A DNA stretch of 64,000 nucleotides from Nitrospiria bacterium (GCA_919903025.1 CAKKSE010000008.1:16334-80333), one strand, 5' to 3'; numbered from the stretch's first letter, positions 11,956 to 62,072 are shown. The notes: generated from the letters alone by a model not told the origin. A program made the numbers and translations.

Positions 11956-11992
11956 GCAATTTTCAATTTTCAATTTCCAATTTTCAATTCTT
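11956..11992. repeat. AT-rich heptad tandem repeat (AATTTTC)n, copy A
   Basis: CAATTTTCAATTTTCAATTTCCAATTTTCAATTC between the ntrY stop and the ntrX start. Confidence 0.6.
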
Positions 11993-12014
11993 GGCATCCA
12001 CCCATCCGCCCAGG

Positions 12015-14219
12015 TCACGCCGCCTTGAGCGGCAGGTCGATCATGAACGTCGTCCCTTGGGGCTCGCCCCGGCCCACGCGGATCTGCCCGGCGTGCTCGC
12101 TCACGATCCGGTTCACGATCGCGAGGCCCAAACCCGTCCCGGATTTCTTCCGCGAGAAGTACGGGAGGAATATCTTGTCCATCTCCTCGGCGGGGATCCC
12201 CGGCCCGTTGTCCGCGACCTCGATCGCGACCTTCCCCTCGGCCCGGTGGGCGCGCGTCCGGACAACGAGGCGCCCGCGCCCGTCCATGGCTTGGACGGCG
12301 TTCTCAAAGAGATTCACGAAGAGCCGCCGAAGCTGCTCCTTGTCGAACGAGAAGACCGTCACGCCCGGATCCAGCTCGGTCTCGATCACGATGTCCCGGT
12401 GGGCCGAGCGGTAGAGCGCCGCCACTTCGCCGATCAGGATGTTCAGGTCGTTCGGCTGGGGACGGGCCACGGGGAAGCGAGCGAACTGGGAGAACTCGTC
12501 CACGAGCCTCTTGAGATCGTCCACTTGCTGGACGATCGTCCGCGTGCATTCCTCGAGGATGGAAGGGAAGTCGCCGGCCCCTTCCGCGAACCGCCGGCGC
12601 AGACGCTGGGCCGAGAGCCGGATCGGCGTGAGCGGGTTCTTGATCTCGTGGGCGATCCGCCGGGCCACCTCCTCCCACGTGGCAGTCTTCTGGGCCTTGA
12701 TGAGCTCGGTGAGGTCCTCGAAGAGAACCAGGAACCCCAGCGGCTCGCCCTTGGAATCGACCAGCCGGGAGACGGCCATGTGAAGATGGAGGCCCCGTCC
12801 GCCGATCGTCAGGGTCAGGTTCTTCTCAACCGTCCGCCTTCCCCCCTCCGAGAGCGACCGGACCAGATCGAGAACGGGCCGGAAGCCCCCCTCCGAAAGA
12901 ACCTCCCGGTACGGCCGGCCGACGATCTGGGCGGGGTCGATCCCGAGGATCTCTCCTGCCGCCCGGTTGAATGTCGTCACCTTGTTCGTGATGTCGACCG
13001 ACACGACGCCCGCCGCGACGTTCTCGAGGATCGTCTCGGTGTAGGCCCGCCGGGCGTCGATCTCCATCGCCGAGACTTGGAGCGACCGGTACGCGGCGTC
13101 GAGCCGCTGTCGCCCCGTCCGAATGTCCTCGGTCATCTTGTTGAAGGAGTCGACGAGCGTGCCGATCTCGTCGGCCGCGGTCGCCTCCACCTTGACGTCG
13201 AGGTCCCCCTGCGAAACGCGGTGCGTGGCCTCGGCGAGCTTCTGGATCGGGATCGTGATTCCCTTCGACAGGTAGAGGCCGTACCAGATCGCGATGAACA
13301 GGATCGCCAGCGTGATGAGGAGGAAGGTGAGGAAATAGCTCGCCTTGATGGGCGTCCGGTACGCCTGGAGCTGGCGGTACTCGTCGTACGCCGTGGAGAT
13401 GGAACCCAGCTTGGAGACGAGGGCCGGAGGGAAGTAGACGTCGATGATGACGATTCCCGGGATCCGCCCGCCCTTCGCCGGGATGGGAACGACGGCCCGG
13501 ACGATTTCGCCGGCGGGAGTCGCGACGATGTCCGAGACCGCCTCCCCCCGGAAGCCGCTCTCGACGGACTCGGGCGCCGGGGGACGAACGGCCTCTTCGG
13601 GAATGTCGGAGGCGGCTACCTTGAGGCGGGAGAGCGTGGGGCTCGTCCGGACCTCGATCCGGGCCATGTTCTCGTCGCGGAGCTTCCGGGACAGGAGGGC
13701 CGAGAGCCTCCCTTCGGCGCCCAAGGCGAGGAGCTCCTCCCGCGTGATTTCGTCCGCGATCCGGCTCCCGGCCCCCGCCGCCCGCTTCCGGGCCTCCTCG
13801 TAGTAGAGGGAGTGGGCCAGCTCGACGGCGTCGCGGAGCGACCGCTCGACGGGAGGGGAGAACCAGTTGTTCACGATGGCATTGATCATCCCCGTCCCCA
13901 CTATGAAGAGCCCGGAGGTCGGGATCAGGATGAGGACGACGAACGTGAGGACGAGCTTGGTCCGGAACTTCGAGCCCAGGACGTCCTGCCGCCGCTCGTA
14001 GTAGAGCTTGACCACGTTCCGCCCGACGAAGATCCCGAGGGCCAGGAGCAGGACGATGTTGATGTTGAGGAGGGTGAAGACGATGATCGTGTCGCCGAGC
14101 GAGCGCTCCGGAACGCCCTGGGCCAGGAGCTCGATCCCGGTGGCGACGACGGAGACGACGAAGAGCAGGAGGAGGACGCGGATCGTCCGCGTGTTTTTTG
14201 CCTTCCGCTCCTCGAACAT
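12015..14219 (-). CDS. ntrY: Sensor histidine kinase, NtrY-like (TM-HAMP-PAS-HisKA-HATPase)
   Basis: N-terminal multi-TM region, HAMP, PAS, H-box (HEIKNPL), and N/G1/G2 boxes. Start trimmed to the Met at 14217-14219 (MFEERKAKNT...). Confidence 0.8.
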   Translation of the reverse strand: MFEERKAKNTRTIRVLLLLFVVSVVATGIELLAQGVPERSLGDTIIVFTLLNINIVLLLALGIFVGRNVVKLYYERRQDVLGSKFRTKLVLTFVVLILIPTSGLFIVGTGMINAIVNNWFSPPVERSLRDAVELAHSLYYEEARKRAAGAGSRIADEITREELLALGAEGRLSALLSRKLRDENMARIEVRTSPTLSRLKVAASDIPEEAVRPPAPESVESGFRGEAVSDIVATPAGEIVRAVVPIPAKGGRIPGIVIIDVYFPPALVSKLGSISTAYDEYRQLQAYRTPIKASYFLTFLLITLAILFIAIWYGLYLSKGITIPIQKLAEATHRVSQGDLDVKVEATAADEIGTLVDSFNKMTEDIRTGRQRLDAAYRSLQVSAMEIDARRAYTETILENVAAGVVSVDITNKVTTFNRAAGEILGIDPAQIVGRPYREVLSEGGFRPVLDLVRSLSEGGRRTVEKNLTLTIGGRGLHLHMAVSRLVDSKGEPLGFLVLFEDLTELIKAQKTATWEEVARRIAHEIKNPLTPIRLSAQRLRRRFAEGAGDFPSILEECTRTIVQQVDDLKRLVDEFSQFARFPVARPQPNDLNILIGEVAALYRSAHRDIVIETELDPGVTVFSFDKEQLRRLFVNLFENAVQAMDGRGRLVVRTRAHRAEGKVAIEVADNGPGIPAEEMDKIFLPYFSRKKSGTGLGLAIVNRIVSEHAGQIRVGRGEPQGTTFMIDLPLKAA

Positions 14220-14254
14220 CTCGGCCGGGCTCTTGGATGGAGAAGGAATCGTCG

Positions 14255-25029: not shown

Positions 25030-26336
25030 CCGACCCGTCCGGGGGAAGCGCCGATCTCTCCGCCGCCCGCTTGGGCGAGCTCTGGCGGACGATCGAGGAC
25101 CTCAAGCGCCAGATCCGCGAGCGGGACGAGCTTCTCGCCGAATACCGCAAGGCCCTCGAAACCCACCTGGCCCCCCCCCGCCCGTACCAGATCGTGACGG
25201 CCAAGGAGAAGGTGGACCGTTCCATCGCCATCCTGAACACGCTCTACCACGTGAACGGCGGGTACACCTCGGCCATGTCCGGGCCGTACCGGGCGCTCTG
25301 GCTCCGGGACACGCTCTACTGCGCGATCGCCCGCGAGTACGTGGGCGACTTCGAGAGCATCAAGAAGACGTACGGCTTGGCCTTCGACATCTTTCACAAG
25401 TCCGGCGACAAGATATCGAGCTGTATCGACGATCCGCCGACGGCGAAGACCGACTTTCTCCACGCCCGCTACAATCCCCACACCCTCCAGGAGTTTCCCG
25501 AGGAGTGGGGCCACAACCAGCTCGACATCTTCGGCCTCTTTCTCTACAAGGTGGGGGATCTGCGGCAGAAGGGGATCGTCGTCTACCGCGACTACAAGGA
25601 CCTGAAGCTGGCCCAGGACCTCGTCTGGTATCTCTTCTCGCTGGACTGGGACAAGGCCCCCGATTTCGGCGTATGGGAAGAAGGGCCGGAGGTCCACGCG
25701 TCGAGCGTCGGGGCCGTCCTGGCCGGGCTCCGCGCGGCCCGGGAGCACATCGCCGAGATCCGCGTTCCCGGCCGCTTCCTCGCCGCTGGGCGCGAGGCCT
25801 TGGGCCGCCTTCTCCCGCGGGAAAGCGAGTCGCGGCCGTATGACCTGGCCCAGCTCTCCCTTCTCTGGCCGTACCGCGTCGTCTCGCCCGAGCAGAGGGA
25901 GCAGATCCTGTCGAACATCGAGACTCACCTCGTCCGCGAACGGGGGGTCATCCGCTACCCCGGGGACCGTTACTACAACGCCGATCCGAGCCGCCCCGAC
26001 GGAAATGAAGCGGCCTGGCCGATGGGCTTCTCGTGGCTCTCGATCGTGTACACCAAGATCGCCGAGGAAGACCTCGCCGCGGGACGCCGTTCCGACGTCA
26101 TCGCGTCATTCAAGAAAGCACACCACTACATCAAGAGGACCGAGTCAGCCATGGTGGACGGAGGGGCGATCCCCGAGCTCTACGTGGGCGACAAACCGAA
26201 TCCGAACACGCCGCTCACCTGGGCGCAGGCGATGTACATTGTGGCCGTCCAATCCCTGGAAAACCTCAAGCTTTCCCTGGACCGCGTCGAAATGGGAAGT
26301 GTGGCCGCGGAAATGGAGAGGGAAGGCGCGGGCTAA
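25026..26336 (+). CDS. Glycoside hydrolase family 15-like protein (glucoamylase/trehalase/phosphorylase-kinase-type (alpha/alpha)6 barrel) with an N-terminal coiled coil
   Basis: GH15-type motifs (LWLRDT, WEEGPEVHASSVG, W...E catalytic-region pattern). ATGA overlap with the upstream response regulator. Confidence 0.65.
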   Translation: MTDPSGGSADLSAARLGELWRTIEDLKRQIRERDELLAEYRKALETHLAPPRPYQIVTAKEKVDRSIAILNTLYHVNGGYTSAMSGPYRALWLRDTLYCAIAREYVGDFESIKKTYGLAFDIFHKSGDKISSCIDDPPTAKTDFLHARYNPHTLQEFPEEWGHNQLDIFGLFLYKVGDLRQKGIVVYRDYKDLKLAQDLVWYLFSLDWDKAPDFGVWEEGPEVHASSVGAVLAGLRAAREHIAEIRVPGRFLAAGREALGRLLPRESESRPYDLAQLSLLWPYRVVSPEQREQILSNIETHLVRERGVIRYPGDRYYNADPSRPDGNEAAWPMGFSWLSIVYTKIAEEDLAAGRRSDVIASFKKAHHYIKRTESAMVDGGAIPELYVGDKPNPNTPLTWAQAMYIVAVQSLENLKLSLDRVEMGSVAAEMEREGAG

Positions 26337-26344
26337 AGACGGTA

Positions 26345-26388
26345 TTGAAAATTGTAAATTTCAAATTGAAAATTTTCAATTTTCAATG
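26345..26388. repeat. AT-rich heptad repeat, copy B (palindromic arrangement GAAAATT...AATTTTC)
   Basis: TTGAAAATTGTAAATTTCAAATTGAAAATTTTCAATTTTCAATG between two convergent genes. Confidence 0.6.
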
Positions 26389-26408: not shown

Positions 26409-26933
26409 CTACGTCCTCAGCGCCAGCTCGACAATGAGGACGACGAGAGTTCCGAGGACGAGGTTGACGCGGACGAGCGCGGTGAGACTCTTCAGATGGG
26501 CCGGGATCTCCGCGTACCGCACGCTCCCTGGCTGTTCCAAGCGGGCGAGATCGGACGCGGCGGCGTAGTGGCGGAAGACGATCCGGAGGAAGACGAGAAC
26601 CATCGCGAGCGTGACCGCGAACTTCGCCGTCATGAGAATCCCGTACCGGCTCCCGGCGAGGCTTGGCGACACGCCGAGCCGGGCGAAATAGAAGTAGGCG
26701 CCCGTCGCCGCGAGGACCGCGATGCTTGACCCGGCCAGGATGAAGAACCGCCGAAGGACCGGAACGATGAGCGGGATTCGCTCCTCGATCGGGCGGGTGA
26801 CGAGAACCGGGTGCAAGGCCAGGATGGCGAAGACCATGCCCCCAAGCCACGTCACGGCGGCAAGAACATGAAGAACGTGGAGCAGGGCATCGATCGTCAC
26901 CATGCGGATCCTCCGGAAGACGTCCGCGATCAT
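26409..26933 (-). CDS. Small polytopic membrane protein (CopD-like/DUF-type), function unknown
   Basis: About 5 TM helices. The N-terminal 57 codons of the longer ORF look non-coding, so the start is trimmed to an internal Met. Confidence 0.4.
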   Translation of the reverse strand: MIADVFRRIRMVTIDALLHVLHVLAAVTWLGGMVFAILALHPVLVTRPIEERIPLIVPVLRRFFILAGSSIAVLAATGAYFYFARLGVSPSLAGSRYGILMTAKFAVTLAMVLVFLRIVFRHYAAASDLARLEQPGSVRYAEIPAHLKSLTALVRVNLVLGTLVVLIVELALRT

Positions 26934-26987
26934 ATCCGGCGGGGGGCCGCGGCGTCCAGCGCCTGCTGAACCGAAGGAGAAGAACTC

Positions 26988-28250
26988 ATGGCGGAAGGAA
27001 TAAGCGGTTTCGTCGTCGTCGGCGTCATTCTGGCCGGCTCGATCGCAGCCTTCGTCATCGGCGCGATCATCGGCCGAAAAAAGGGCGCGGCCGAAGTCGA
27101 GCAATCCTTTAACCAGAACATCAAGCAGGTCGAGGCCCGCCTAGCCTCCGAGGGTTCTTTCCGGAAGGCGCTCCAGAACGAGATCGACTGGCTCAAAAAG
27201 GAGAACGAGCGGTACATCCACCTGTTCGTTACGTTCCCCGAGGCCGTCAAGCGCCTCAACTCCACCCAGTCGGTGGACGAAGTCTCCTCGGCCGTCGTCC
27301 GCCTGGCGAAGATGCTCATCGACGCGGACGAGATCAGCCTCTTCTTCTACAAGGAGGCCGAGAACGAGCTCCGCATCGCCCTGGCCTTCGGGATCAAGCG
27401 CGAGCAGGCCGAGGGGCTCCGCGTGCCGTTCGGCGAGGGGATGATCGGGACGGCGGCCGAGACCCGCGTCCTCCTCTCCGAGAACGAATACCGGACCAAC
27501 CCCGAATACGTCGAAAAGAGGGCCCGCGCGCGGGAGACGCGGATCGTGTCCACCTACGCCGCGCCGATCGTCTGCAAGGAAAAGCTCTACGGCGTCCTCA
27601 ACATCGGGAACATCAAGAACCGCACGGGAAACGAGCGGAAATTCCTGGCCATGATCTCCGACCTGGCCGCCGTCTCGCTGGAGAACGCCCTCACGCTCTC
27701 GGGGACGAGAACGGAGGCGACGACCGATCCCCTCACGAGCCTCTACAACCGGCGTTACTTCCAGGAGCGCCTCGTCGAGGAAGTCCAGCGCTCCCGGACG
27801 TACAACGTCCCTCTTTCCGTCTTCATGATGGACATCGACAACTTCAAGCACTACAACGACAACAACGGCCACCCGGAGGGCGACAGGCTCCTCAAGGCGG
27901 TCTCCAAGCTCATCCGGGACAACACGCGCAAGACCTCCATCGTCGCCCGCTACGGCGGCGAGGAGTTCATCGTCCTTCTTCCCGACACTCCCAAGGAAGG
28001 CGCCATGGCCTACGCGGAGAAGATGCGATCGCTCATCTCGGGGACGGAGTTCCCGCACGGCGACAACCAGCCGCTCAGGTGCATCTCGGTCTCCGGGGGC
28101 GTCGCCACGTTTCCCTTCGACGGGGACTCGGGCGACGAGATCGTCCGCCGCGCCGACGAGGGGCTCTACCAGAGCAAGGAGCGGGGGAGGAACCGCGTCA
28201 CCCCCTACGAGCCGCCCGCCTTCCACAAGATGACCCTGCCGGGAGACTGA
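26988..28250 (+). CDS. GAF-GGDEF diguanylate cyclase (membrane-anchored)
   Basis: N-terminal TM segment, coiled coil, GAF domain and a GGDEF domain with an intact RYGGEEF active site. Confidence 0.85.
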   Translation: MAEGISGFVVVGVILAGSIAAFVIGAIIGRKKGAAEVEQSFNQNIKQVEARLASEGSFRKALQNEIDWLKKENERYIHLFVTFPEAVKRLNSTQSVDEVSSAVVRLAKMLIDADEISLFFYKEAENELRIALAFGIKREQAEGLRVPFGEGMIGTAAETRVLLSENEYRTNPEYVEKRARARETRIVSTYAAPIVCKEKLYGVLNIGNIKNRTGNERKFLAMISDLAAVSLENALTLSGTRTEATTDPLTSLYNRRYFQERLVEEVQRSRTYNVPLSVFMMDIDNFKHYNDNNGHPEGDRLLKAVSKLIRDNTRKTSIVARYGGEEFIVLLPDTPKEGAMAYAEKMRSLISGTEFPHGDNQPLRCISVSGGVATFPFDGDSGDEIVRRADEGLYQSKERGRNRVTPYEPPAFHKMTLPGD

Positions 28251-28706: not shown

Positions 28707-29759
28707 CTATTTCCGCCATCTCTGCGTCTTCCGCCACGCCGCGCTCTGTCCGCGTCCAAGGCACTCGATGCGGCCGTCCGATTTCAGGTTTTTCAAAACG
28801 CGCCGGATCAAGTCGATGCTCACGCCCGGACATAGCCTCTGAATCTCCGCCACACGAAAGGCATCGGACATTTCGTCAATCGCACGGGCCACAAGCTCCG
28901 ACTTTTCTCCCTTGGGGCTCTTGACCTGCCCCATGCGTTCCTCGAATTCCAGGTAAGCGGTCTTGAGGATGTAAAGAAGGTAATTCACATACGGCCAAGG
29001 ATCATTCTTCCCTTCATGCCATTTCGTGGAACTCTGCTCAAGCGTCTCGTAATAGCGTTCTTTATTCTGCTCGATGAGGCGTTCCAGACTGATATACCGG
29101 CCGACTTCATATCCGAGGTGATGGCATTGGAGCAGGAGCAACAGCCGCGACACCCGGCCATTGCCGTCCCTGAACGGATGAATACAGAGAAAATCCAGAT
29201 TGAACGCGGCCATCGCGATCAACGGGTGAATCTTGCGCTCCTCAAGGCTCGCGTCCCAGAGCACGGCTAAAGTCTTCATGGCACCGGGGGTTTTCGCGGC
29301 CGGCAAGGTCTTGAAACGGATGCGGGATGTGCCGTCCGGACGCTTTTCGATGATATCCCCGTCTTTTTCCTTGTACTTGCCGGCATCCCAGATTTCCCCG
29401 CGAGCCAGCCGGTGCAAACGCAGGATCGTCTCTTCGGTAATCGGAAGCCTCGGCCCTTTCTCATGGATCAGGGCCAGCGCTTCCCGATAACCATGCACTT
29501 CCTCTTCGTTCCGGTCTCGGAGAAGTGGCCTGCCGAAAACGAGCGTCTCGATGCGCGCCCTCTCCACCTCCACCCCCTCGATCCGGTTCGACGAAACCGT
29601 GCTCTCGATCAACGCGTGCTCGCGCAACACCTTCAAGCGCTGGGGTGATTGCCGCGTGAACAACTCCTGTTTGCCGCGCGCCTCGCCGAGATCGGTGAGA
29701 TACCACGAGGTTGTTACCGGAATGCTCTCGTGCTTCGCCAAGAGCTGGCGCAATGTCAT
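28707..29759 (-). CDS. Fic family protein (class II; N-terminal inhibitory SxxxEG helix) with a C-terminal wHTH
   Basis: HPFRDGNGRVSR Fic motif. TVSSNRIEGVEV is the inhibitory motif. Start trimmed to the Met at 29757-29759. Confidence 0.8.
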   Translation of the reverse strand: MTLRQLLAKHESIPVTTSWYLTDLGEARGKQELFTRQSPQRLKVLREHALIESTVSSNRIEGVEVERARIETLVFGRPLLRDRNEEEVHGYREALALIHEKGPRLPITEETILRLHRLARGEIWDAGKYKEKDGDIIEKRPDGTSRIRFKTLPAAKTPGAMKTLAVLWDASLEERKIHPLIAMAAFNLDFLCIHPFRDGNGRVSRLLLLLQCHHLGYEVGRYISLERLIEQNKERYYETLEQSSTKWHEGKNDPWPYVNYLLYILKTAYLEFEERMGQVKSPKGEKSELVARAIDEMSDAFRVAEIQRLCPGVSIDLIRRVLKNLKSDGRIECLGRGQSAAWRKTQRWRK

Positions 29760-29971
29760 CACGGTTCTCGCTCTCCAATGGGCTGTTGTAGCGCGGATTC
29801 TATCATCTTTTCGCATCTGTACAACGGAACTCGGAAATCGTCGAGGAGAACCGCATGGGCGGCAACAATCCCGGCCCGTAAGTTCTTACAGACTTATGAC
29901 AGGGGTCACTACGAGGTGGAAGGAGTCTCGGCGGGTGTGATATAAAGGCCGCTCGTTCGGATTCAGCTTCT

Positions 29972-30070
29972 GGGAGCGGCTCGGTCACTGGTGGACCGCT
30001 AGGTCTTCAAAACCCATGTGGGGTGCTGAGAGGCGCTCCAGGTGGGTTCGATTCCCACACGCTCCCGCCA
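29972..30070 (+). tRNA. tRNA-like gene with selenocysteine-tRNA architecture (UCA anticodon, long extra arm), a candidate selC or a pseudo-tRNA
   Basis: Hand-folded from the sequence. The 7-bp acceptor GGGAGCG/CGCTCCC is followed by a G8·A mismatch abutting the T-stem, giving 8/5 geometry. The D-stem is CGGTC/GACCG. The anticodon arm has loop CTTCAAA, identical to the E. coli tRNA-Sec loop. The extra arm is an 8-bp stem (3 G·U pairs) with a GAGA tetraloop. The T-arm is GTGGG-TTCGATT-CCCAC, with G73 and an encoded CCA. Total length is 99 nt. Confidence 0.45.
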
Positions 30071-35297: not shown

Positions 35298-35377
35298 AGG
35301 AAACGCTGCTGGTTAGTAGTGCGTAAGCCTACAATCGCGGAATCTTCCGATGTTTTCGATACTGATAAATTTCTCAA

Positions 35378-36676: not shown

Positions 36677-36755
36677 CGACCTCTCCTTAACTCACTGAAA
36701 TTCGCTTTCCGAAATCAATTCCGGGAATCTTATAAAATTCTTCCTGACTCGGCGG

Positions 36756-44082: not shown

Positions 44083-44320
44083 AGGCGCGGAGAAGCCGAT
44101 TGACGCGGGTCTGGTAGCCCCGGCCCTGGGCCCTGAACCAGTGGAGGACGTCCTTGTCGATTCGGATCGTGACGGTCTCCTTTTTCTTCGGCCACTCGAC
44201 GACAGCCTTCGTAAAGAACGAATCGTCAAGCGGAGGAATGTCGGAGTAGTCGATATCCCCGTCACTCATCGCGTCGAGTCTCTTCAAGTCGCTCTTGATA
44301 GATTTTCCTTTCGCGCGCAT
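44045..44320 (-). CDS. brnA: BrnA antitoxin (RHH/CopG-like, DUF-type)
   Basis: LKRLDAMSDGDIDYSDIPPLDDSFF is the conserved BrnA N-terminus. Downstream of brnT. Confidence 0.7.
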   Translation of the reverse strand: MRAKGKSIKSDLKRLDAMSDGDIDYSDIPPLDDSFFTKAVVEWPKKKETVTIRIDKDVLHWFRAQGRGYQTRVNRLLRAFMEAKKRGGKAA

Positions 44321-44552
44321 TGGCTTTCCTCATCGAAATGCCCCGCGTGGCATTGCCCCGCGGAGTATGGACCACGACGACGACACGGCCGGCCAGTGCT
44401 CCCAAGGAAATGAGACGCTCTTCGCCGTAGTCCGCCCGGTTATCCTCGAAGGTAACAGTGGGGCCGGCTAAGACGATGTCCGCGTCCTCGAAGCTCAGGC
44501 CGTGCTTCTTGAGATTCGCCCGGTTCTTCTTCTCGTCCCATCCTATTCTCAC
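44262..44552 (-). CDS. brnT: BrnT toxin (DUF497 ribonuclease), GTG start
   Basis: (M)RIGWDEKKNRANLKKHGLSFEDA...VVVVVHTPRG is the BrnT signature. Start set at the GTG at 44550-44552. Tandem TGTAAATA direct repeats lie upstream at 44564-44583. Confidence 0.7.
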   Translation of the reverse strand: MRIGWDEKKNRANLKKHGLSFEDADIVLAGPTVTFEDNRADYGEERLISLGALAGRVVVVVHTPRGNATRGISMRKANARERKIYQERLEETRRDE

Positions 44553-44625
44553 CGTAACGCAACTGTAAATACATTTGTAAATAACTGCAAGTTCTTCGGC
44601 CCCCAGCCCGGCCTGCCCGCCGGAA

Positions 44626-45420
44626 TCACCGCTGCGCCTTCTCCACCCGCACGACGTACCGATCATTCTTGAAAGCGAGGACCCGCGATTCGAACCTCTC
44701 CGCAAGGGCCGGTTCAACCTTCAGGCGGCGGAGAATGGCGAGATGGGCGTCGAACTCCTTTTCGCCTTGGGCCGCCGTTACGAGGACGCCGCCCGGCGTG
44801 AGGATCTTGAGGGCGTGGGCGAAGAAGGCCAAGGGATGAAGACGGTCGAGCGGCAGACCCCAGGCGAGGTGGGGAGTTTTCGTCACGAACGGGAAGAGGG
44901 CCGTGACGAGGTCCGCCGGGCCGGGCGCATCGAGAAAGTCCCCGGCAACGAACCGGGTCCCGGGCAGGAACGAGGCGTATCCGCGAGCGTGGTCGGCGCG
45001 GGAGCGGAGGTCGGTGTAGACACGGTAGGCGTCAATCTCGTATCCTGTCAGGGTAATCTTTCGCGTCCCGTGGATACGGAAGCGCTCCAGGAACCGGAAC
45101 AGGCCGAAGGCATAGAAGAAATTCTTGCACCCCGCGTCGATCCCGATTGCGGCCTCCCCATAGTTCCCCGTCCATCCCCGGTGGGCCGCCTCCAGGAGGT
45201 CCAGGAGATAGAGGTTCTCCAGGTAGGTCCTGAGGCGGGAGCGGGCCTTGAGGGGCGCCAGATCGTACCGGCCTTCCAGGTCGCGGATCCGGTCGGACGC
45301 CGGATGGTCGCGGAGAGAATCCTTCGGCTCGTTCCGCTCGACGAACGGCCCCCTCTGCCAGCGGACCTTTTGGCGAAGGCGGAAGAAGAAAGCGTTTCGG
45401 GCGGAGCGGATGGAGATCAT
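44626..45420 (-). CDS. Class I SAM-dependent methyltransferase-like protein (weak call)
   Basis: Roughly 265-aa ORF with IGIDAGCKNFFYAFGL (motif I-like) and plausible codon usage. The N-terminal extension of the longer ORF is antisense to mtgA. Its start overlaps the mtgA start by 11 nt. Confidence 0.4.
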   Translation of the reverse strand: MISIRSARNAFFFRLRQKVRWQRGPFVERNEPKDSLRDHPASDRIRDLEGRYDLAPLKARSRLRTYLENLYLLDLLEAAHRGWTGNYGEAAIGIDAGCKNFFYAFGLFRFLERFRIHGTRKITLTGYEIDAYRVYTDLRSRADHARGYASFLPGTRFVAGDFLDAPGPADLVTALFPFVTKTPHLAWGLPLDRLHPLAFFAHALKILTPGGVLVTAAQGEKEFDAHLAILRRLKVEPALAERFESRVLAFKNDRYVVRVEKAQR

Positions 45421-46189
45421 GATCGGAATGCTATCCAAACGGATGAACAGCCGCAAGAAACGGTTTGTGTACGCCGGGATCGGCCTCGGCGCCGGCCTTG
45501 TCCTGGCCCTGGGAGCCTTTGTCCTGACTCTGCCGGACGTGTCCGCGCTCGCCGGAACGAACCCGAGGACGACGGCGCTCATGGAGCAACGGGCCTCCGA
45601 GGCAAAGGCGAAGGGAAACAGCCGTGCCAGCCGCCGCGACTGGGTGCCGCTCAATCGGATCGCCCCGCACGCCGTCCTCGCAGTCGTCACGATGGAGGAC
45701 GACCGGTTCTGGCGGCACGAGGGGTTCGACTTCGTGGAGATGAAGGAGGCCGTGCAGAAGAACTGGGAGAAGAAAAGCTGGCGCCGCGGCGCATCGACGA
45801 TCACCCAACAGCTCGCGAAGAACCTCTACTTCGGGACGGAGAAGAACCTCTGGCGGAAAGTCCGCGAAGCGGCGACGGCCTGGAAGATAGAGCGGGCGCT
45901 GTCCAAGCGGCGGATCCTCGAGATCTATATGAACGTCGTCGAATGGGGAAACGGGATCTACGGCATCGAGGCCGCGTCACGGCACTATTTCGGAAAGAGC
46001 CCGGCGGACCTGTCGGTCGACGAGGCCGTCCGCCTCGCCGTCGTTCTTCCAAGCCCGAGGCGGTACGATCCCCGCGGATCGTCCGCGTTCGTCGAGAACC
46101 GGCGGTCTGTACTGCTGGAACGTCTCGCCCGAAAGGGCGTCCAGACCGAAGCGGAACTCGCGTTTGGAACGCCGGGGTCTTCACTTTGA
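45410..46189 (+). CDS. mtgA: Monofunctional biosynthetic peptidoglycan transglycosylase
   Basis: TM anchor followed by a GT51 domain (EDxRFxxHxG, STITQQL, RKxxE motifs). About 260 aa. Confidence 0.8.
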
Positions 46190-46220
46190 AATTTTCAATT
46201 TTCAATTTTCAATTTACAAT
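46186..46220. repeat. AT-rich heptad repeat, copy C
   Basis: TTGAAATTTTCAATTTTCAATTTTCAATTTACAAT, 13-47 nt upstream of the ABC-F start. Confidence 0.6.
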
Positions 46221-46232
46221 CCGGCTCTCATC

Positions 46233-48236
46233 ATGATCTCAATCCAGAATCTCCAGAAATCGTTCGGCGGCCGGGTCCTCTTCCGTGACGCCTCGCTCCG
46301 GATCGGCGCCCGGGACCGCGTGGCCCTCGTCGGGCCGAACGGCGCGGGAAAGACGACGCTGTTCGAGATGGTCGCCGGGAACGAACCGCGGGACGGCGGC
46401 GAGATCGTTATCGCCCGCGGCGTCACGGTGGGTTACCTTCCCCAGGAGATCCTTCCCCAGGGGAGCCGGGACGTCCTCAAGGAAGTCCTATCCGTCGCGG
46501 GCGACATCACGAGCATCGAGCACCGGCTGAAAGCCCTGGAAGCCGACATGGCCGAGGCGCCTCCCGAAGAAGCCGAGCGCCTCGCCCACGAGCACGGCGA
46601 GCTCATGCACCACTTCGAGCGGATGGGCGGATACATGATCGAGAACGAGGCCAAGCGCATTCTCACCGGCCTCGCCTTCCGGGAGACCGACCTCTCGCGC
46701 AGCGTGGAGACGTTCTCCGGCGGCTGGCGGATGCGGATCGCCCTGGCCAAGCTCCTCCTGGTCAACCCGGACCTCCTCCTCCTGGACGAGCCGACGAACC
46801 ATCTCGACCTTCTTTCCGTCATCTGGCTCGAGGGGTTCCTCCGCGCGTACGAAGGAGCGATCGCCGTCATCTCCCACGACCGCCAGTTTCTGAACAACCT
46901 CTGCACCGGCGTGGTGGAAATCGAGGGCGGGAGGCTCGCGGCCTACGTGGGAAACTACGAGGCCTTTACGGCGGCCAAGGCGGAGGGCCGGGCAATCCTC
47001 GAAGCGACGGCCAAGAACCAGCAAAAGAAGATCGCCGAGACCGAGAAGTTCATCGAGCGGTTCCGGTACAAGGCGACGAAAGCCCGGCAGGTCCAGAGCC
47101 GGATCAAGATGCTCGCAAAGGTGGACCGCGTCGCCCTTTCCGAGGAGCGGAAGAAGGTCCGCTTCCATTTCCCCGATCCGCCCCGGTCGGGGGAAGACGT
47201 GCTGGTTCTCTCCGGGGTCTCCAAGTCCTACGGCGGGAAGACCGTCTACCAGGACCTCGATCTCACCGTGCGTCGCGGGCAGAAGATCGCCTTGGTCGGG
47301 CCGAACGGCGCCGGCAAGTCCACCCTGCTCAAGATCCTGGCGGGCGTCCTGCCGTTCGAGACGGGCGAGCGGCGCGTGGGCCACAACGTGGAGACCGCCT
47401 ACTACGCCCAGCATCAGCTCGAGGCGCTCGAGCCCCGGCGGACGATCCTCGCGGAGATGCAGAACCACTGCCCGGAAGATTCCCAGGAGCGCCTCCGGAC
47501 CCTTCTCGGCGCGTTCCTCTTCACGGGAGACGACGTCGACAAGAAGATCTCCGTCCTCTCGGGCGGCGAGAAGGCGCGCGTCGCCCTCGCCAAGATGCTC
47601 GTCCGCCCGGCGAACTTCCTCTGCCTCGACGAACCCACGAACCACCTGGACATCCCTTCCCGCGACATTCTCGAATCGGCCCTCTCCAGCTTCGCCGGGA
47701 CTGTCGTCTTCATCACGCACGACCGGCACCTGATCCGCGCCATCGCCAACGGGATCGTCGAGATCGACGGCGGGCGCGCGTCGATCTATCCCGGCGATTA
47801 CGACTACTATCTGTACAAGAAGGGTGTATCAACCACGACCGCCTCGCGCGAATCGAGCGTGCCCACACCCCCTCCTCCCCTCCCCCCGCCCGCGGTGGGA
47901 GGGCCAGGGTGGGGGGCGGTCGCGTCCGGCCCGAAGACCCGTGACATGAAGAAAGCCGAGGCCGAAGCGCGGAACGCCCGGTACAAAGCGACGAACAGCG
48001 TGAAGAACCGGGTCAAAAAGGTGGAGGAATCGCTGAACAAAGCGCTGATCCGGAAGGAAGAGATCGAGCGTCAACTTGCCGATCCGGCGTTCTACGAGAA
48101 GAAGGAATCCTTCTTCGAGCTTCTCTCCGAGCACGGGAAGCTCAAGAAAGAGGTAGAGCGGTTCACGGCCGAGTGGGAGAAACTCTCCGCGCAACTGGAA
48201 GAAGCCGAGCAGGCCCTCGCCGAAACGGGGACCTGA
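46233..48236 (+). CDS. ABC-F family ATPase (two ABC domains, no TMD; Uup/EttA-like) with a C-terminal coiled coil
   Basis: Two Walker A motifs ([18 protein letters not shown]), two LSGG signatures and a C-terminal KE-rich coiled coil. The linker between ABC2 and the coiled coil contains a Pro/Gly-rich segment encoded by a G-rich repeat element. Confidence 0.85.
47868..47919. repeat. G-rich element (CCCTCCCC...GGGAGGGCCAGGGTGGGGG) embedded in-frame in the ABC-F coding sequence
   Basis: The 19-nt string GGGAGGGCCAGGGTGGGGG also occurs at about 55199-55218 in intergenic DNA. Here it encodes [18 protein letters not shown]. Confidence 0.5.
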
Positions 48237-55222: not shown

Positions 55223-55460
55223 CGAGCGGGGCAACGCTTCCCCCAAGATATGGGCCACACCCACACAAAACCCGGATGCGCCGAAAAAGTATCTCACCCC
55301 AGCATCTCCTGGATTCCCGCTTTCGCGGGAATGGCGTGGAAGGGTGCGCGGGAGGTTTTTCAACAAGCTCCTATTGTTCGATCAGCCCCAATCTGATATT
55401 GATTGACCGGCGCATCCGGGAGTGACCCCATCTGTCACGGACGTCTGCTACCCTTTCACC

Positions 55461-58400
55461 ATGCCGATCGCCGTCCACACATTCTCGTACGCCGACTCCG
55501 GCGCCCTAGACCGCCTTCTTGCCCCGTGGGTGGCTGAGGCCGCCCGCCGCGGGCGGCCGTTCCGGTTCGACGACCGGATCGTTCTCGTGCCCTCCTCGCG
55601 GGCGGGCCGATTCGTCCGCGGGCGGATCGCCGTTCACGTCGCGCGAGCCGCGCAAGGCCAATCCGCGGCGTTCCTGCCTCCTCCGACGTGGACCTTCCGC
55701 CAGCTCGTCCGGGAGATCCTCCGGCCTGAGGAGGTCCCCGTCGTGGAGGAACTGGAGGAGGGAGTCCTTCTTGGAGGTCTCCTCAACGAGATGGGCGATC
55801 TCCCCGTCCTGGAGCCGCTCCGCGGACCTGACGGGAGCTTTTCCACCGGCCTCGTCTCGCACATTCTTAAGTTCTTCCGGGAGATCCGGGACTACGACGC
55901 GCCGCTTCCTCTGACGCCGCGGGTCGACGCAATCCGCAATCATCTCGGGCTGGTCCGGGAAACGGCCGAGGCCCTGGACGCCGTTCTCGACCGCTACGTC
56001 GGCCTCCTGGACCGGCTGAACGTTTGGGACGAGGCGGGTCTCCGCTACAGGGCACTGGAACGGCTCGCCGGGCCTGAAAACGATGCCCCGGCCTTTCTCG
56101 ACAACGTCCGGGAGATCGCGGCCTGGGGGTTCGAGGACATGGGCGCCCGGGAGCGGGACATCCTCCACCGCTTGTCCGAGCGCGTGCCGGTGACGGCCCA
56201 CGTCCCTTTCGTTCCGGCCTGCGGCGGATACGCCTCTTCCGGCCGCCTCGCCCGGCAATTGGGCGGGACGGAATCCCCGGAAGACGCATCCGCCGAGCCC
56301 TCGCTCGACGCGTTCATGTTTAACCGGGCGACGCCCGAGGAGCGCTCTGCCCTGGCCGGGCGGATCGTTCTCGCGCACACGATCACGCTCACGCCCGTTC
56401 CGAGTCCGGAGGCCGAAGTCACGGCCATCGCCCGGATCGTCAAGCAGGGCGCTCTGAACGGAGAAATCCCGGATCTCTCGCGCGTCCTCGTGACGTTCTT
56501 CGGGTCGGACCGCTACATCCCGCTCGTGGAGGAGATCTTTCCCCGGTACGGGATTCCGGCGAACATCGCGCCCGGGAAACGCGCGCCGCGGGTCCCGCCG
56601 ATTCAGGCCGTCATGGCACTCCTGGACGCCGCCATCGAGGCTTCGCCCGCCGCCGTCGCGCGCCTTCTCTCGACTCCCTATCTCTCCTTCCTCTCCGCCG
56701 AGGCGCATTCCCTTCTCCTCTCCCTCGCCCGGACGAATCCGCCGGCCGCGTCGAGGGAGGAATGGCTCTCCCTCGTCGACGAGACGCTTTCGGCCCAACG
56801 AAGTGAGCGGACGAATGAAGGAGACGCGAGCGGCGAGCCGCCCCGCGGAAAGGACGAAGAGCTCCGGCGGAGCGTGTCGGCCCTTTTCGATCGTCTCGAC
56901 CGGATAGCGAGGGCGTCCGGCTGGGAGGACGGAAGACAGGCGCTGTGGGAAGCTCTCGCCGCCGGAGGGTTCCGCGGGAACCTGAAGACGGAAGAAGACC
57001 ACCATGGGGTAAGACGGCTCTTCGAAATCTGGCACAGGCTCCAGTCGGCGGCTGGCGCAATGTCGAAGCTCTGCGGTCAGGCCGGCCCCCCGGGTCTCCG
57101 GGAGATCGCCGATCATCTCCGCCGGACCCTGGGCGGAGAGGCGGTTCGCGTCGCCGGCGATGGGGCGGCCGCCGTCCAGGTCCTCGATCCGATGGAGGCG
57201 CGGGGGATCGATTTCGATCTCGTCTGCGTGGGCGGGCTGACGATCGACGGCCTTCCCGGGAACGCGCCGACGAACATCTTCTTCGGCGGATGGGTCCGCG
57301 AACAGCTTGGGCTTCCCTCGGCCCGCCAGCGCGTCGAGGCCCGGCGGCAGGATTTCCTCCGCCTCCTCCATGCGGGGCGACGGGCCTGTCACCTCGTCTA
57401 TCCTCTCGAGGTGAACAACCGGCCCGTGGAGCGGTCACCATTCCTGTCCGAATTGGACGAGCTGGTCGAGATCGGACGGATCGTCAGCGTTCCGCCGAAA
57501 CAGACGGGTCCTCCCCTCTCGAAGGAAGAATGGGACCAAGCCGCGTTCGGTCAGGGGTCTCTCCCAGCCGGCGCGGCGCCGAGCACGGGCGATCTCCCGG
57601 AGATCGCGGAATCGTTCCGGTCGGCGATCGCCCAAGGCGCGGGGATCCGCGGCGGAACTCCCGGATACGGCGGGAACCTGACCGGGACGCCAGCCGCGCC
57701 CGTCATCCGGGACCGATTCGCCGACCGGATTTTTTCCGTTTCGGAAATCGAAAGCTGTCTCGAATGCGGGTACAGGTACTTCCTCCTCAAAGTCCTGGGC
57801 CTCCCCGCGCCCCTCCCCGGCCCCGACCAGGCGGAGGCGATCCTCCGGGGCAAGGCGTACCACGAGATCCTGGCCGCTTTCTACGGGGAATGGAAACGGC
57901 CGATCGCGGAAGGGGAGAAGGACGCGGCGTTGGCGCGGATGACGGAGATCGCGAAGGGCGTCTTTGCGCGCGAGGGGCTCGACGTCGAGGCAAGGCGGGC
58001 GCTGGCCTACGACGGCGTCCTCTCCTCCTGGATCGACGCCGAAGCGGAGGGCGGGTGGCCGGCCGAAGAGGTCTTCTCCGAGCAGACCGTGGAGGGAACG
58101 CTTGCCTCCGAAGACGGAGACGCGCGGTTCCGGGCGCGGATCGACCGGATCGACCGGATCGGATCCGATGCAGCCATCCTCGACTACAAAACGGGTTCGA
58201 GCCTTCCGACGCAGACGAGCGTCCGGGAGGGACGATCGCTCCAGCTTCCGCTTTACGCGCTTCTCCTCGAGCGGAGCGGCAAAGGGACCCGAGTGACGCG
58301 GATGGGTTACGCATCCGTGCGTCCGAAGCCAAAGGCGGGCATCACGCCGATCCTTCTGCGTGAGAGCGGGAAGACCGCGGACCGCCCCGCGGCCCGCACG

Positions 58401-58619
58401 AAGGCCTGGGCCGCGGACGAAGAGTTCGACGCCGTCCTGAATCTCGCCGCCGGCAGGGCCGTCGATGTCGTCCGCGCCGTCCGGGACGGCTTCTTTCCCC
58501 GCGCGGACGACCCGCGTGCGTGCAAGACCTGCGGTCTCTCCGACGTCTGCCGGAACCATCTGCTGTCGGAGGACACGGATGACGCCCCAAACAGGGGGGA
58601 GAATCAAGATGGCGGCTGA
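55461..58619 (+). CDS. addB: AddB-like PD-(D/E)XK nuclease subunit (degenerate helicase-like N-terminus, C-terminal RecB-type nuclease with Cys cluster)
   Basis: C-terminal ILDYKTG...LQLPLYALL nuclease motif and CKTCGLSDVC. No Walker A, as in alphaproteobacterial-type AddB. Stop overlaps the addA start. Confidence 0.7.
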   Translation: MPIAVHTFSYADSGALDRLLAPWVAEAARRGRPFRFDDRIVLVPSSRAGRFVRGRIAVHVARAAQGQSAAFLPPPTWTFRQLVREILRPEEVPVVEELEEGVLLGGLLNEMGDLPVLEPLRGPDGSFSTGLVSHILKFFREIRDYDAPLPLTPRVDAIRNHLGLVRETAEALDAVLDRYVGLLDRLNVWDEAGLRYRALERLAGPENDAPAFLDNVREIAAWGFEDMGARERDILHRLSERVPVTAHVPFVPACGGYASSGRLARQLGGTESPEDASAEPSLDAFMFNRATPEERSALAGRIVLAHTITLTPVPSPEAEVTAIARIVKQGALNGEIPDLSRVLVTFFGSDRYIPLVEEIFPRYGIPANIAPGKRAPRVPPIQAVMALLDAAIEASPAAVARLLSTPYLSFLSAEAHSLLLSLARTNPPAASREEWLSLVDETLSAQRSERTNEGDASGEPPRGKDEELRRSVSALFDRLDRIARASGWEDGRQALWEALAAGGFRGNLKTEEDHHGVRRLFEIWHRLQSAAGAMSKLCGQAGPPGLREIADHLRRTLGGEAVRVAGDGAAAVQVLDPMEARGIDFDLVCVGGLTIDGLPGNAPTNIFFGGWVREQLGLPSARQRVEARRQDFLRLLHAGRRACHLVYPLEVNNRPVERSPFLSELDELVEIGRIVSVPPKQTGPPLSKEEWDQAAFGQGSLPAGAAPSTGDLPEIAESFRSAIAQGAGIRGGTPGYGGNLTGTPAAPVIRDRFADRIFSVSEIESCLECGYRYFLLKVLGLPAPLPGPDQAEAILRGKAYHEILAAFYGEWKRPIAEGEKDAALARMTEIAKGVFAREGLDVEARRALAYDGVLSSWIDAEAEGGWPAEEVFSEQTVEGTLASEDGDARFRARIDRIDRIGSDAAILDYKTGSSLPTQTSVREGRSLQLPLYALLLERSGKGTRVTRMGYASVRPKPKAGITPILLRESGKTADRPAARTKAWAADEEFDAVLNLAAGRAVDVVRAVRDGFFPRADDPRACKTCGLSDVCRNHLLSEDTDDAPNRGENQDGG

Positions 58620-61600: not shown

Positions 61601-62028
61601 CGGCCTGGGACCGCTGGAAGGACCGGATCGCCGCGGCCGCGCCCGAGATCGACGAGGCCGGCATTCAAAACGAGATCGGGAGAGTCCGCGAACACGTGGA
61701 ACGGGCCGTGTCGTCGCCCGGCGTTTCGTGGGCGGCGGGAAGGGAGGGATTGGTCGGGTCCGAGATCGACATCATCGTCGCCGAGAAGGAGAAGGCTCTC
61801 GCCGTTCGCCTCGATCGGCTATACTTGCGGGATGGGGTCTATCATATCGTCGACATCAAGACCGGCCGGGCCGACACGCCGGAGGAGACCGCCGCCCAGG
61901 TCGAGAAGTACCGTCCCCAAATGGCAATGTACGCAAGAGCCGTGAGACTCCTCTACGGGCCGGATGCGGCCGTCCGGACGTGGCTGTTGTTCACGGGCGC
62001 CCCGAAGGTTGTGGAAGTAGAAAATTGA
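58609..62028 (+). CDS. addA: AddA-like UvrD/Rep superfamily-1 helicase–nuclease
   Basis: Walker A APAGSGKTH, helicase motifs through VI, and a C-terminal PD-(D/E)XK nuclease (IVDIKTG). About 1140 aa. Confidence 0.8.
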   Translation: MAAEMIRDIRRHVMIHAPAGSGKTHALVTRTLALLAAGETPEGIVAVTFTDKAALEMRERIVRGLARPDQAGFPGAEEKDRLRSLWMEVRDEPRRLRVSTIHAFCGDVLRRFPIAVGLDPDFSVLDPHDQAYLRARAVEESVSVWRRGRGTEAGERFRETAGAAGGIRALTKMLVEMLAGRKRLGDVIRRWAGDGAIDPDEYAEEYARGMKIAWTRVWLGGGGETLRERLIEFCSVMKGHPTANKEYALETLTARVHADDFGTTDDIVSLTLGFLTKKGEPRKAFRIAKKEMNGIDRALYESLHATVAGLLAPLAGEAMSHPPVETARRAARAWASCLALYVEVERRYDNLKRQHGGIDFDDLEILALGLLTGQAAERARGDAGFHPMDALLALDNRVRHLLIDEFQDTSGLQWEIVKPLVSEWLSGEGSSDTPRTFFAVGDPNQSIYLFRDAEVTLMRSVRRKIEDLPEENRALVPFETNRRSTRAIVAFANHVFPPLLKGDYTTSLGTRLEEGSVSIRLVLGKDPGRILEARLVAETLRSAEGLPVFDRDARDPRPASWGDMAVLLRTRTSLEVYCDAFRTAGVPYVVIGGLGFFDRPEVRDVLNLFALLIDENDDLALAAWLTSPGAGLSDLDLFGVASAEGTTLRSRLRRLASADPRLGRVSSALDRWSAWAGRVSMAEILRRVFEETAFRETTAALLGPPARANLAKLHEMVRAVEARGWSAPADVLHRLQTLRVHGGDEAQADLPMEEANGLGKARHGSVRIMTVHAAKGLEFPIVIVPMLGKPHPQDKRSVAVEGGFAGIDLPGAAKGDRNPFAWFRARYNEKRLAEEKRLLYVAATRARDHLFLAGGVSVKGETGRTIEWPKADSSWLGLIASTALIPEAPVPDPADVLEMRFRSASSPEVIFHAAVDPSASLPDTSGREETVSARSYPATEGLAQVRPAGPVFVSDGKNPDEDERPLSSAPWEPAVDLAREKGTLVHRALDILARGGEPAWDRWKDRIAAAAPEIDEAGIQNEIGRVREHVERAVSSPGVSWAAGREGLVGSEIDIIVAEKEKALAVRLDRLYLRDGVYHIVDIKTGRADTPEETAAQVEKYRPQMAMYARAVRLLYGPDAAVRTWLLFTGAPKVVEVEN

Positions 62029-62072
62029 TAATTGAAAATTCTCAATTGAAGATTTGAAATTGAAGATCGAGA
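62019..62072. repeat. AT-rich heptad repeat, copy D (reverse orientation: GAAAATT units)
   Basis: GAAAATTGATAATTGAAAATTCTCAATTGAAGATTTGAAATTGAAG between the addA stop and the psuG start. Confidence 0.6.

Follow-up and report, generated by a model that had tools for sequence, protein, structure and literature searches.

The 64,000-nt stretch of Nitrospiria bacterium DNA analyzed here (GCA_919903025.1, CAKKSE010000008.1:16334-80333; hereafter the window, in whose coordinates positions are given) contains four tandem arrays of the heptanucleotide AATTTTC, or of GAAAATT when the complementary strand is read. We are highly confident that these arrays represent a family of AT-rich heptanucleotide tandem repeats that obeys a positional rule, the reading on the coding strand being tied to the nearest gene boundary. 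The family belongs to a known, functionally unexplained class of intergenic 7-nt simple sequence repeats (SSRs), and what is new is the unit itself, its breadth over phyla and GC contents, and an orientation rule linked to stop and start codons. There is good support for an origin and resizing of the arrays by slippage. As to their role, we tentatively favor that of a translation-linked spacer at cistron boundaries, a reading whose functional part we infer.

Four arrays at gene boundaries and an orientation rule

Arrays were called with Tandem Repeats Finder (TRF) and with a two-unit probe allowing at most two mismatches, using 100 dinucleotide-preserving shuffles as the null. The probe matched 12 times in the window, each time inside one of the four arrays, where 0.09 matches were expected and none of the 100 shuffles reached 12. 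TRF found head-to-tail 7-nt units with a period of 7 in 4.4-6.4 copies at all four sites and no other period-7 array of at least four copies in the window, in which only the AATTTTC unit forms heptamer arrays. Both searches thus confirm the four non-random arrays reported in a preliminary description of this DNA. The window has a GC content of 63.5% and 11 AT-rich islands, the four longest of which are these arrays. In the family as a whole, the unit AATTTTC occurs with the variants AATTTCC, AATTTAC and AATTCTC. The units of the four arrays are 7 nt long and contiguous, unlike the repeats of at least 23 nt and unique spacers of a CRISPR, so that the earlier exclusion of a CRISPR holds. A search of Rfam 15 at the gathering score matched one tRNA and one tRNA-Sec in the window and nothing at the arrays. 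The further remark that a 7-bp period does not fit the helical repeat of DNA needs qualifying, given that three units span 21 bp, or two turns, and are not simply out of phase.

Window genes were named through Pfam, except for the transglycosylase gene, which was identified from genes called on further contigs of this organism. Pfam identifies an NtrY-like kinase, an NtrX-like sigma-54 activator, GH15-like and CopD-like proteins, an ABC-F ATPase, AddB/AddA-like nuclease-helicases and PsuG, in agreement with the names previously given. Site 1 (11957-11992; TRF 11957-11989, 4.7 copies, 92% matches) has AATTTTC on the + strand and reads AAGAATT, GAAAATT, GGAAATT, GAAAATT, GAAAATT and a final G on the coding (-) strand, an orientation that we call the G-reading. 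It sits in the 132-nt spacer between the co-directional ntrY-like and ntrX-like genes, 22 nt from the ntrY-like stop codon (12015-12017) that precedes it and 74 nt from the ntrX-like GTG that follows (11880-11882). Site 2 (26344-26388; TRF 26344-26387, in two overlapping rows) is an inverted pair with no strand of its own, in which GAAAATT-type units are directly followed by AATTTTC units, without a GC-rich center, and which reads the same on either strand; its outer arms, ATTGAAAATTG and CAATTTTCAAT, pair. The GH15-like and CopD-like genes end in convergent stops (26334-26336, +, and 26409-26411, -), and the pair occupies the greater part of the 72-nt spacer that separates them. This spacer folds into a strong hairpin compared with shuffled sequences (z = -4.4 on one strand and -3.9 on the other), which bears out the palindrome between convergent stops noted earlier.

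Site 3 (46187-46220, + strand, including the preceding TGA; TRF 46190-46220, 4.4 copies, 95% matches) consists on the sense strand of the TGA stop followed by three AATTTTC units and one AATTTAC, the C-reading. The array fills 31 nt of a 43-nt spacer that opens at the TGA (46187-46189) of a co-directional monofunctional transglycosylase gene (mtgA), and 12 nt lacking a Shine-Dalgarno (SD) motif separate it from the ABC-F ATG (46233-46235). Its location upstream of the ABC-F gene had been recognized, but this context was incomplete, as the array also begins at the preceding stop. Site 4 (62020-62067, + strand; TRF 62020-62064, 6.4 copies, 63% matches) is a degenerate G-reading (GAAAATT, GATAATT, GAAAATT, CTCAATT, GAAGATT, TGAAATT, GAAGAT on the sense strand) in a 52-nt spacer; it does lie upstream of psuG, whose ATG (62081-62083) begins 13 nt past the array, but the earlier description needs the correction that the AddA-like TGA stop (62026-62028) falls within it. 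The measured distances of 74, 12 and 13 nt agree with the earlier statement that three of the sites are close to start codons. On the coding strand, sites 1 and 4 thus read (GAAAATT)n, site 3 (AATTTTC)n, and site 2 GAAAATT and then AATTTTC. At every site except site 2, the flanking genes are co-directional and probably co-transcribed.

The orientation rule comes from a survey by exact search for three units, with one genome per species, which covers at least 120 loci and in which gene boundaries were predicted with a self-trained dicodon model, each locus being excluded from its own training. Single arrays lay inside genes in 8 of 149 cases and TRF-defined arrays in 11 of 141, i.e., about 92-95% are intergenic, and they are found in co-directional, convergent and divergent spacers alike, with no single transcriptional geometry. 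The arrays are thus intergenic as claimed, in the survey as at the four window sites, and their strong positional and orientational bias is the opposite of what the preliminary description had said would count against it, namely an absence of positional bias or a random presence in coding DNA. In co-directional spacers, the G-sense single arrays (n = 44) lie at a median of 2 nt from the upstream stop and 77 nt from the downstream start, with the stop codon inside the array in 21 of them. The corresponding medians are 56 and 18 nt for C-sense single arrays (n = 24), the (AATTTTC)n reading terminating ~5-20 nt ahead of the downstream start, and 1.5 and 7.5 nt for inverted pairs (n = 10), which fill the spacer. 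In the whole survey, 21 pairs are arranged G-then-C vs. one C-then-G. Expressed without reference to strand, the G-reading points away from the nearest gene boundary. This holds in 64 cases against 19 overall (p = 7e-7), in 69 against 19 when arrays are defined independently by TRF (p = 8e-8), and in 48 against 8 in genomes above 45% GC; all four window sites fit.

The codon content of the two readings matches this placement. The GAAAATT repeat cycles through the triplets GAA, AAA, AAA, AAT, ATT, TTG and TGA and, since 7 is coprime to 3, three units provide a TGA in every frame. Read as AATTTTC, the repeat cycles through AAT, ATT, TTT, TTT, TTC, TCA and CAA, with neither a stop codon nor ATG, GTG or TTG. 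A practical consequence is that gene callers can misplace starts and stops at the arrays: whatever the frame, a G-reading contains TGA stops as well as TTG codons that can be taken for starts, and a C-reading is open. TTG codons in G-sense arrays that are miscalled as starts bias against the rule, and this artefact therefore did not create it. The other heptamer arrays in the same loci are unpolarized with respect to stop content (9:7), T-richness (20:20) and pyrimidine content (23:21). A generic stop-codon or T-richness logic common to all heptamers was thus rejected, as it is absent in the other units, of which only 16 arrays are informative for stops. Taken together, the orientation rule points to translation over DNA binding.

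Distribution across genomes and turnover between relatives

The unit is present in more than 120 reference genomes. Among the matches listed, at least 10 phyla carry (AATTTTC)3, cultured carriers such as Pinibacter aurantiacus MAH-26, Prevotella sp. ne3005, Parabacteroides sp. PH5-46 and Trichormus sp. NMC-1 included: Acidobacteriota (many of them Thermoanaerobaculia), Bacteroidota (Bacteroidales, Tidjanibacter, Prevotella, Saprospiraceae and Chitinophagaceae), Ignavibacteriota, Bacillota, Patescibacteria, Planctomycetota, Chloroflexota, Cyanobacteria, Pseudomonadota and Desulfobacterota, to which Nitrospirota are added. The GC content of the carrier loci ranges from 32% to 68%, and many loci hold several arrays. 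A negative control of 441 kb of loci picked only for an NtrX homologue contained no array of at least three units; the closest metagenomic ntrY-ntrX orthologues in it are 55-61% identical, too distant for an analysis of turnover. In the carrier loci, period 7 accounts for 263 arrays and every other period for at most 25. About half of these period-7 arrays have other units, at a density per kilobase ~6-fold that of the control loci, so that carriers are heptamer-rich genomes in general. A literature search for the AATTTTC unit, both as a string and as a word, found no paper describing it. The arrays are conspicuous in GC-rich genomes, which makes a census easy, and their recurrence in cultured Bacteroidota and Cyanobacteria makes the question of function, which has accompanied heptamer repeats since the cyanobacterial work on short tandemly repeated repetitive (STRR) sequences, more tractable.

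This distribution has to be weighed against the possibility that the arrays are SSRs without function. According to this explanation, slippage favors 7-nt units, arrays drift in length and are tolerated in the AT-richer spacers, and the positional pattern arises from purifying selection on coding DNA combined with loss of the native stop codon beside an array that contains stops in all frames. We regard it as somewhat unlikely, though to be taken seriously as the main rival. One source reports, citing a 2007 survey, that heptamers are over-represented among bacterial SSRs and that polymerase slippage has been proposed as the cause (PMC4692102). The ~6-fold excess of non-family heptamer arrays over control loci, the absence of an Rfam family at the window arrays, and the ntrY-ntrX spacers of deep relatives, which are just a few nucleotides long and arrayless, go in the same direction. 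So does a search of viral contigs for three units of AATTTTC and of three composition-matched control heptamers, which found 39 loci for AATTTTC and 56, 76 and 52 for the controls. Uniqueness of the AATTTTC unit was rejected on these numbers, since AT-rich heptamers in general form arrays. However, 44% of the AATTTTC loci were in contigs of at least 50% GC, compared with 23% for TTAATTC, the one control that shares the AATT core, and 5% and 10% for the other two; AATT-core heptads persist in GC-rich DNA. The lack of function is also difficult to reconcile with a polarity that is strong and specific to this family, and with arrays that start at stops and end near starts too frequently for random placement in a spacer.

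Comparisons between relatives provide arguments on both sides. At each of the four sites, the arrays are identical across 3-7 population contigs from independent groundwater metagenome samples, these being consensus assemblies and not reads. A hypermutable or phase-variable locus was rejected on account of this invariance among consensus assemblies, and the absence of population-level length variation in such assemblies likewise speaks against a freely slipping, functionless repeat. The flanking genes (ntrYX-like, GH15, CopD, mtgA, ABC-F, addA and psuG) are not the surface, restriction or virulence switches beside which contingency SSRs are placed. One further contig (L223; ERZ1286166 contig_5309) has the same ntrY-ntrX spacer and array as the window, with fragmented gene calls and a truncated NtrX (402 aa), consistent with an error-prone long-read assembly of the window organism.

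Between relatives, sites 1 and 3 behave differently. Site 1, which has five units in the window, has ~8 units in one relative (L222; NtrX 89% identical), including three GAGAATT and one GGAAATT, and in two others (L219 and L220; NtrX 90% identical to that of the window) the heptads are absent and the spacer is 40 nt shorter. Such presence/absence and copy-number turnover, and the fact that the array is dispensable in L219 and L220, are what functionless repeats would show. In these two relatives, the spacer (L219 9909-10000, GCA_040960375.1; L220 3349-3440, GCA_040960175.1) instead holds 8-mer arrays in a roughly inverted arrangement, with GGTGGCTA-like units to the left and CATCAACC-like ones to the right; remnants of these flanks (GGATGGGTGGAT and ATCTACCCATC) pair around the heptad array of site 1 in the window. 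Site 3, by contrast with what functionless repeats would lead one to expect, is retained in the same place and orientation in two relatives whose ABC-F proteins are 86% and 84% identical to that of the window. Their units shift among AATTTTC, AATTTCC and AATTTAC and the spacers are 43 and 58 nt long, with a two-unit length difference, while the arrays always finish in CAATTTACAAT, 12 nt ahead of an SD-less ATG.

Several loci illustrate how arrays arise and change. The psd start overlaps the ABC-F stop (ATGA) in the window and in the relative L224, and in Nitrospirae bacterium RBG_16_64_22 (L225) two C-sense arrays have been added 6 nt before the psd ATG. The same region of L225 (9394-9600) contains a ~130-nt tandem duplication comprising a C-sense array, the 6 nt and the first ~60 nt of psd, so that the real psd start is now preceded by a truncated pseudo-start. 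Variant units are common to 35% of the pairs of arrays that occupy separate sites within one locus, as opposed to 9% of the pairs between loci (p = 1e-9). The longest array, in an Acidobacteria metagenome-assembled genome (MAG; L077 945-1063), has 17 units, three AATTTTC followed by 14 AATTCTC, a clear case of a variant unit amplified within an array. Heptad arrays also abut other low-complexity arrays (L118 2940-3055, L034 4170-4240 and L116 6410-6493), namely (GGGGGTGA)n in a Caldilineaceae MAG and CCCTCT-type runs in Bacteroidales MAGs, which suggests that such spacers accumulate several repeat kinds. In an Ignavibacteriaceae MAG (L009 4120-4178), an eight-unit array of AATCTTC and AATTTTC ends 3 nt before an apparent tRNA 5′ end (GGGCCCTTAGCTCAGCT...).

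A proposed role in translation and competing readings

In the mechanism that we tentatively favor, slippage in 7-nt steps would create and resize the arrays, arrays would be copied or homogenized within the genome, and they would be kept at cistron boundaries for their properties in mRNA. The (AAUUUUC)n reading, G-free, pyrimidine-rich and with little structure, could offer a landing pad for the 30S subunit just 5′ of the start codon in a transcript that is otherwise GC-rich and prone to structure, possibly by binding proteins of the ribosomal protein S1 or cold-shock type. The (GAAAAUU)n reading would place UGA in all frames where the upstream gene ends, with an open stretch after it. Paired arms would form an AU helix of 20-30 bp that may close the 3′ ends of convergent transcripts or, alternatively, connect a cistron's stop with the start codon that follows, so that translating the first cistron opens the second. 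The positions of stop and start codons are defined by translation alone, and promoters, terminators and DNA-binding proteins therefore need not respect them within a few bases. Of all the features, this tightness to codons discriminates best. A role in translation is our best guess on the strength of it, of the stop-rich and stop-free readings, of a site 3 array that relatives have kept, of a polarity confined to this family and of the precedent of the TAACTGA repeats discussed below.

Several observations weigh against this role. G-sense single arrays, the commoner class, show no obvious benefit beyond backup stops. The arms of inverted pairs match each other only as a trend (p = 0.09); compensatory mirroring of variant units in the arms, apparent by eye, was for this reason not relied on. 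The polarity fades below 45% GC (16:11), and survey gene boundaries are subject to a few percent of error, given that the gene caller erred on 2-3 of the ~55 window genes, choosing an antisense open reading frame (ORF) over the AddB-like gene (55422-58619, +) and missing the CopD-like (26409-27104, -) and transglycosylase (45443-46189) genes. The relatives L219 and L222 differ in the presence of the site 1 array although their NtrX proteins are 96% identical, which places the gain or loss of this array on a short branch, and its absence from a close relative indicates that at least some copies are dispensable. In the window, the same array lies 74 nt from a GTG that has its own AAGGAGG SD motif. 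Downstream of C-sense arrays, an SD motif was found in 3 of 12 cases against a background of 34% (p = 0.75, underpowered), and Bacillota examples retain a clear SD between array and start; since the depletion is non-significant and the comparison underpowered, we do not claim that arrays replace the SD. The ribosome standby site put forward in the preliminary description remains the best fit among its three proposals, given where the C-reading ends relative to starts, with the reservation that this test of SD loss was underpowered.

An extended version of the translation-linked reading, which we hold to be improbable, takes the AATTTTC family as a cross-phylum, orientation-dependent cis element in mRNA at cistron boundaries, read by a near-universal single-strand binder (a cold-shock-domain protein or S1) with a footprint of ~7 nt. 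At starts poor in SD motifs, the U-rich reading would serve to load ribosomes, and its complement at stops would pair with it, coupling or gating translation. If true, this would supply a functional reason for the long-noted heptamer excess in bacterial spacers.

A further rival invokes RNA structure. In this reading, which we think has little chance of being the general explanation, inverted pairs and hairpin-adjacent single arrays are intrinsic, often bidirectional terminators or 3′-end stabilizers, their A- and U-tracts extended by heptads, and single arrays are decayed halves. The G-then-C excess among pairs and the hairpin of site 2 between convergent genes agree with it. Survey pairs form AU-rich stems of 20-30 bp around unique centers of 6-149 nt, many of which are GC-rich stem-loops bounded by AAAA and TTTT, the shape of a bidirectional intrinsic terminator (L056, L028, L067 and L081), and strong GC hairpins lie immediately 5′ of (AATTTTC)n in L037, L104 and several Tidjanibacter loci. 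However, a consensus terminator scan called no terminator-like site at the four window sites, the spacers at these two single-array sites, 3 and 4, are no more stably folded than shuffled sequence (z = -0.9 and +0.8), and the array of site 1 sits in the loop of a hairpin made by its flanks. When all single arrays are pooled, the 45-nt flank on the hairpin side has a folding energy little better than that of the opposite flank (-8.3 vs. -6.5 kcal/mol). A general hairpin beside single arrays was rejected because this difference is too weak, which limits the terminator reading to a subset. Moreover, G-sense single arrays exceed C-sense ones 44:24 in co-directional spacers, opposite to the prediction for U-tracts, and pairs that fill co-directional spacers would leave the next gene without room for a promoter. 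For some pairs, the terminator reading probably holds, and it is compatible with the translation-linked model. In three Tidjanibacter MAGs (L015, L050 and L057), one GC hairpin (CTCCCCTAACTTAGGGGAG-like) recurs just 5′ of arrays in several species-level genomes, which suggests a composite element resembling the repetitive extragenic palindromic (REP) sequences.

Double-stranded binding sites for a regulator or nucleoid-associated protein, also raised in the preliminary description, have in our view a similarly small probability. Heptads are a known binding format, the operator of the omega repressor being built of 7-bp heptads. The 7-bp periodicity around an AATT core, which has a narrow minor groove, would suit such a protein, and a variant flavor shared within each genome is expected from a co-evolving trans-acting factor. 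The TTTTGAT heptads of the cholera-toxin promoter (ctxAB) are reported to recruit regulators (10.1101/2021.05.14.444153). Against this stand the tiny spacers in probable operons, without promoter room, of three of the four window sites, a placement that follows stop and start codons, which DNA-binding proteins cannot sense, and the spread over at least 10 phyla with no shared candidate factor.

We also consider it very unlikely that the arrays are built-in promoters that drive the gene downstream with a short leader or none. A consensus promoter scan gave four promoter-like sites in three of the four arrays (sites 1-3), with 0.1 expected per region, the matches being TTGAAA-N17-GAAAAT or TACAAT inside arrays. 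These matches follow automatically from the repeat: as 6 + 17 = 23 = 2 mod 7, any array of at least five units contains TTGAAA-N17-GAAAAT, and the AATTTAC variant gives TTTxCA-N17-TACAAT. TACAAT closes each of the five start-proximal arrays of the Nitrospirota lineage, 6-12 nt before the ATG. However, TANNNT shows no general enrichment at start-adjacent ends (6/24, vs. 7/41 at stop-adjacent ends; p = 0.53), and a conserved -10 element, although true of the Nitrospirota lineage, was rejected as a general rule. G-sense arrays do lie at a plausible 5′-untranslated-region length upstream of starts (the median of 77 nt), but inverted pairs would amount to face-to-face promoters 20-40 nt apart, and G-readings that start at stop codons are left unexplained. 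Bacteroidota, in which the arrays abound, use a different promoter consensus, which also counts against this idea. The UP-element-like enhancer proposed earlier does not fit sites 3 and 4, where there is no place for a core promoter in the 12-13 nt before the start in a spacer that begins at the previous stop.

Least probable of all, in our estimation, is that the arrays are mobile elements resembling REP doublets (REPINs) or miniature inverted-repeat transposable elements (MITEs), with the pair as the mobile form, singles as decayed copies and a transposase acting in trans. The fixed orientation of the pairs, the variant flavors shared by arrays of the same locus, the new acquisition at a gene junction in L225 and the two alike array-palindrome-array elements of L026 are in its favor. 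The pair centers are unique in sequence and length, however, so that pairs are not copies of a master element; target-site duplications were not seen, nor was an associated transposase, although none was searched for, and the presence across phyla would require many compatible transposases.

Two further features of the window lie beside the arrays. A tRNA-Sec gene (29972-30066, +; Rfam RF01852, 70 bits), directly preceded by a Fic gene, is followed by a low-GC island (54-57% vs. 63.5%) that encodes a DNA methylase-like protein, an AAA_13 ATPase, a DUF2130 protein, and a helix-turn-helix (HTH) plus IrrE/M78 peptidase protein; the region (28707-38295) looks like an integrated island or defense cluster at tRNA-Sec. 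A BrnT/BrnA type II toxin-antitoxin pair is found at 44045-44717 (-), with an AT-rich island (44554-44597) inside the long TTG-started brnT ORF. In related contigs, brnT is called as 96 or 134 aa, and its true start may lie downstream of this island.

Comparison with known repeat systems

In Proteobacteria, REP sequences and REPINs are short, dispersed, intergenic, and often located just after operon-internal stops; their inverted doublets form long hairpins, with singles as remnants and a genome-specific flavor, and they are imperfect palindromes, species-specific and mobilized by RAYT transposases. The AATTTTC arrays resemble them in dispersal and in the occurrence of doublets, but differ in being tandem 7-nt repeats and in the unique centers of their pairs. 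The CodY box AATTTTCWGAAAATT, a 15-bp AATTTTC-W-GAAAATT, is built from the same heptamer and its complement, in C-then-G order with a 1-nt spacer. CodY is, to our knowledge, confined to Bacillota. It was rejected as an explanation on account of the single C-then-G pair against 21 G-then-C pairs and of a host labeled Nitrospirota, an NtrX protein 100% identical to that of the window being assigned by NCBI to a Nitrospirota MAG.

Closer parallels are found among heptamer repeats, for no family of which a function is reported to be established (PMC4692102, PMC4679880). The STRR of heterocystous cyanobacteria such as Calothrix and the GGGAATC/GGGGAYT repeats of Xanthomonas and Nostoc are dispersed intergenic arrays of one 7-nt unit, present in about a hundred or more copies per genome (~185 for GGGAATC in Xanthomonas) (Rehm 2015; PMC4692102). 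They share with the AATTTTC family differences in length and sequence between close relatives at the same spacer and some inverted pairs between convergent genes. Their units are G-rich, with G-quadruplex potential, or mixed, whereas AATTTTC is AT-rich; each is confined to one genus or group, whereas AATTTTC occurs in many phyla; and the passages of that source consulted here report no gene-boundary polarity rule for them. The 7-bp repeats upstream of Haemophilus influenzae hmw1A/hmw2A and the TTTTGAT heptads of Vibrio cholerae ctxAB are likewise T-rich heptamer tandem arrays. They are reported to lie between the promoter region and the start codon, with a copy number that tunes expression (PMC12721329, PMC8262952, 10.1101/2021.05.14.444153). 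Unlike these single-locus, hypervariable contingency or regulator-binding arrays at virulence genes, the AATTTTC arrays are dispersed and population-invariant, flank housekeeping genes and are also found at stops.

The nearest relative in behavior is the TAACTGA heptamer of marine Beggiatoaceae and of some Cyanobacteria and Bacteroidetes (MacGregor 2015; PMC4679880), a 7-nt unit that is overwhelmingly intergenic and forms tandem sets of ~2-6, occasionally tens. As in the AATTTTC family, one orientation contains stops in all frames and often overlaps the stop of the upstream gene, sets lie a few nucleotides from starts that mostly lack an SD motif, the spread across phyla is patchy, strains differ by 7-nt indels, and other heptamer arrays co-occur. 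Binding of S1, Csp or CsrA has been proposed as its function (PMC4679880). The two families differ in their unit and in their hosts, which for AATTTTC include GC-rich Nitrospirota and Acidobacteriota, and in inverted pairs, which are common in the AATTTTC family, while a single indirect repeat was reported for TAACTGA (PMC4679880). They also differ in polarity: the stop-containing reading of TAACTGA, its "forward" reading, precedes starts, whereas in the AATTTTC family the stop-containing reading lies at stops and the stop-free reading before starts.

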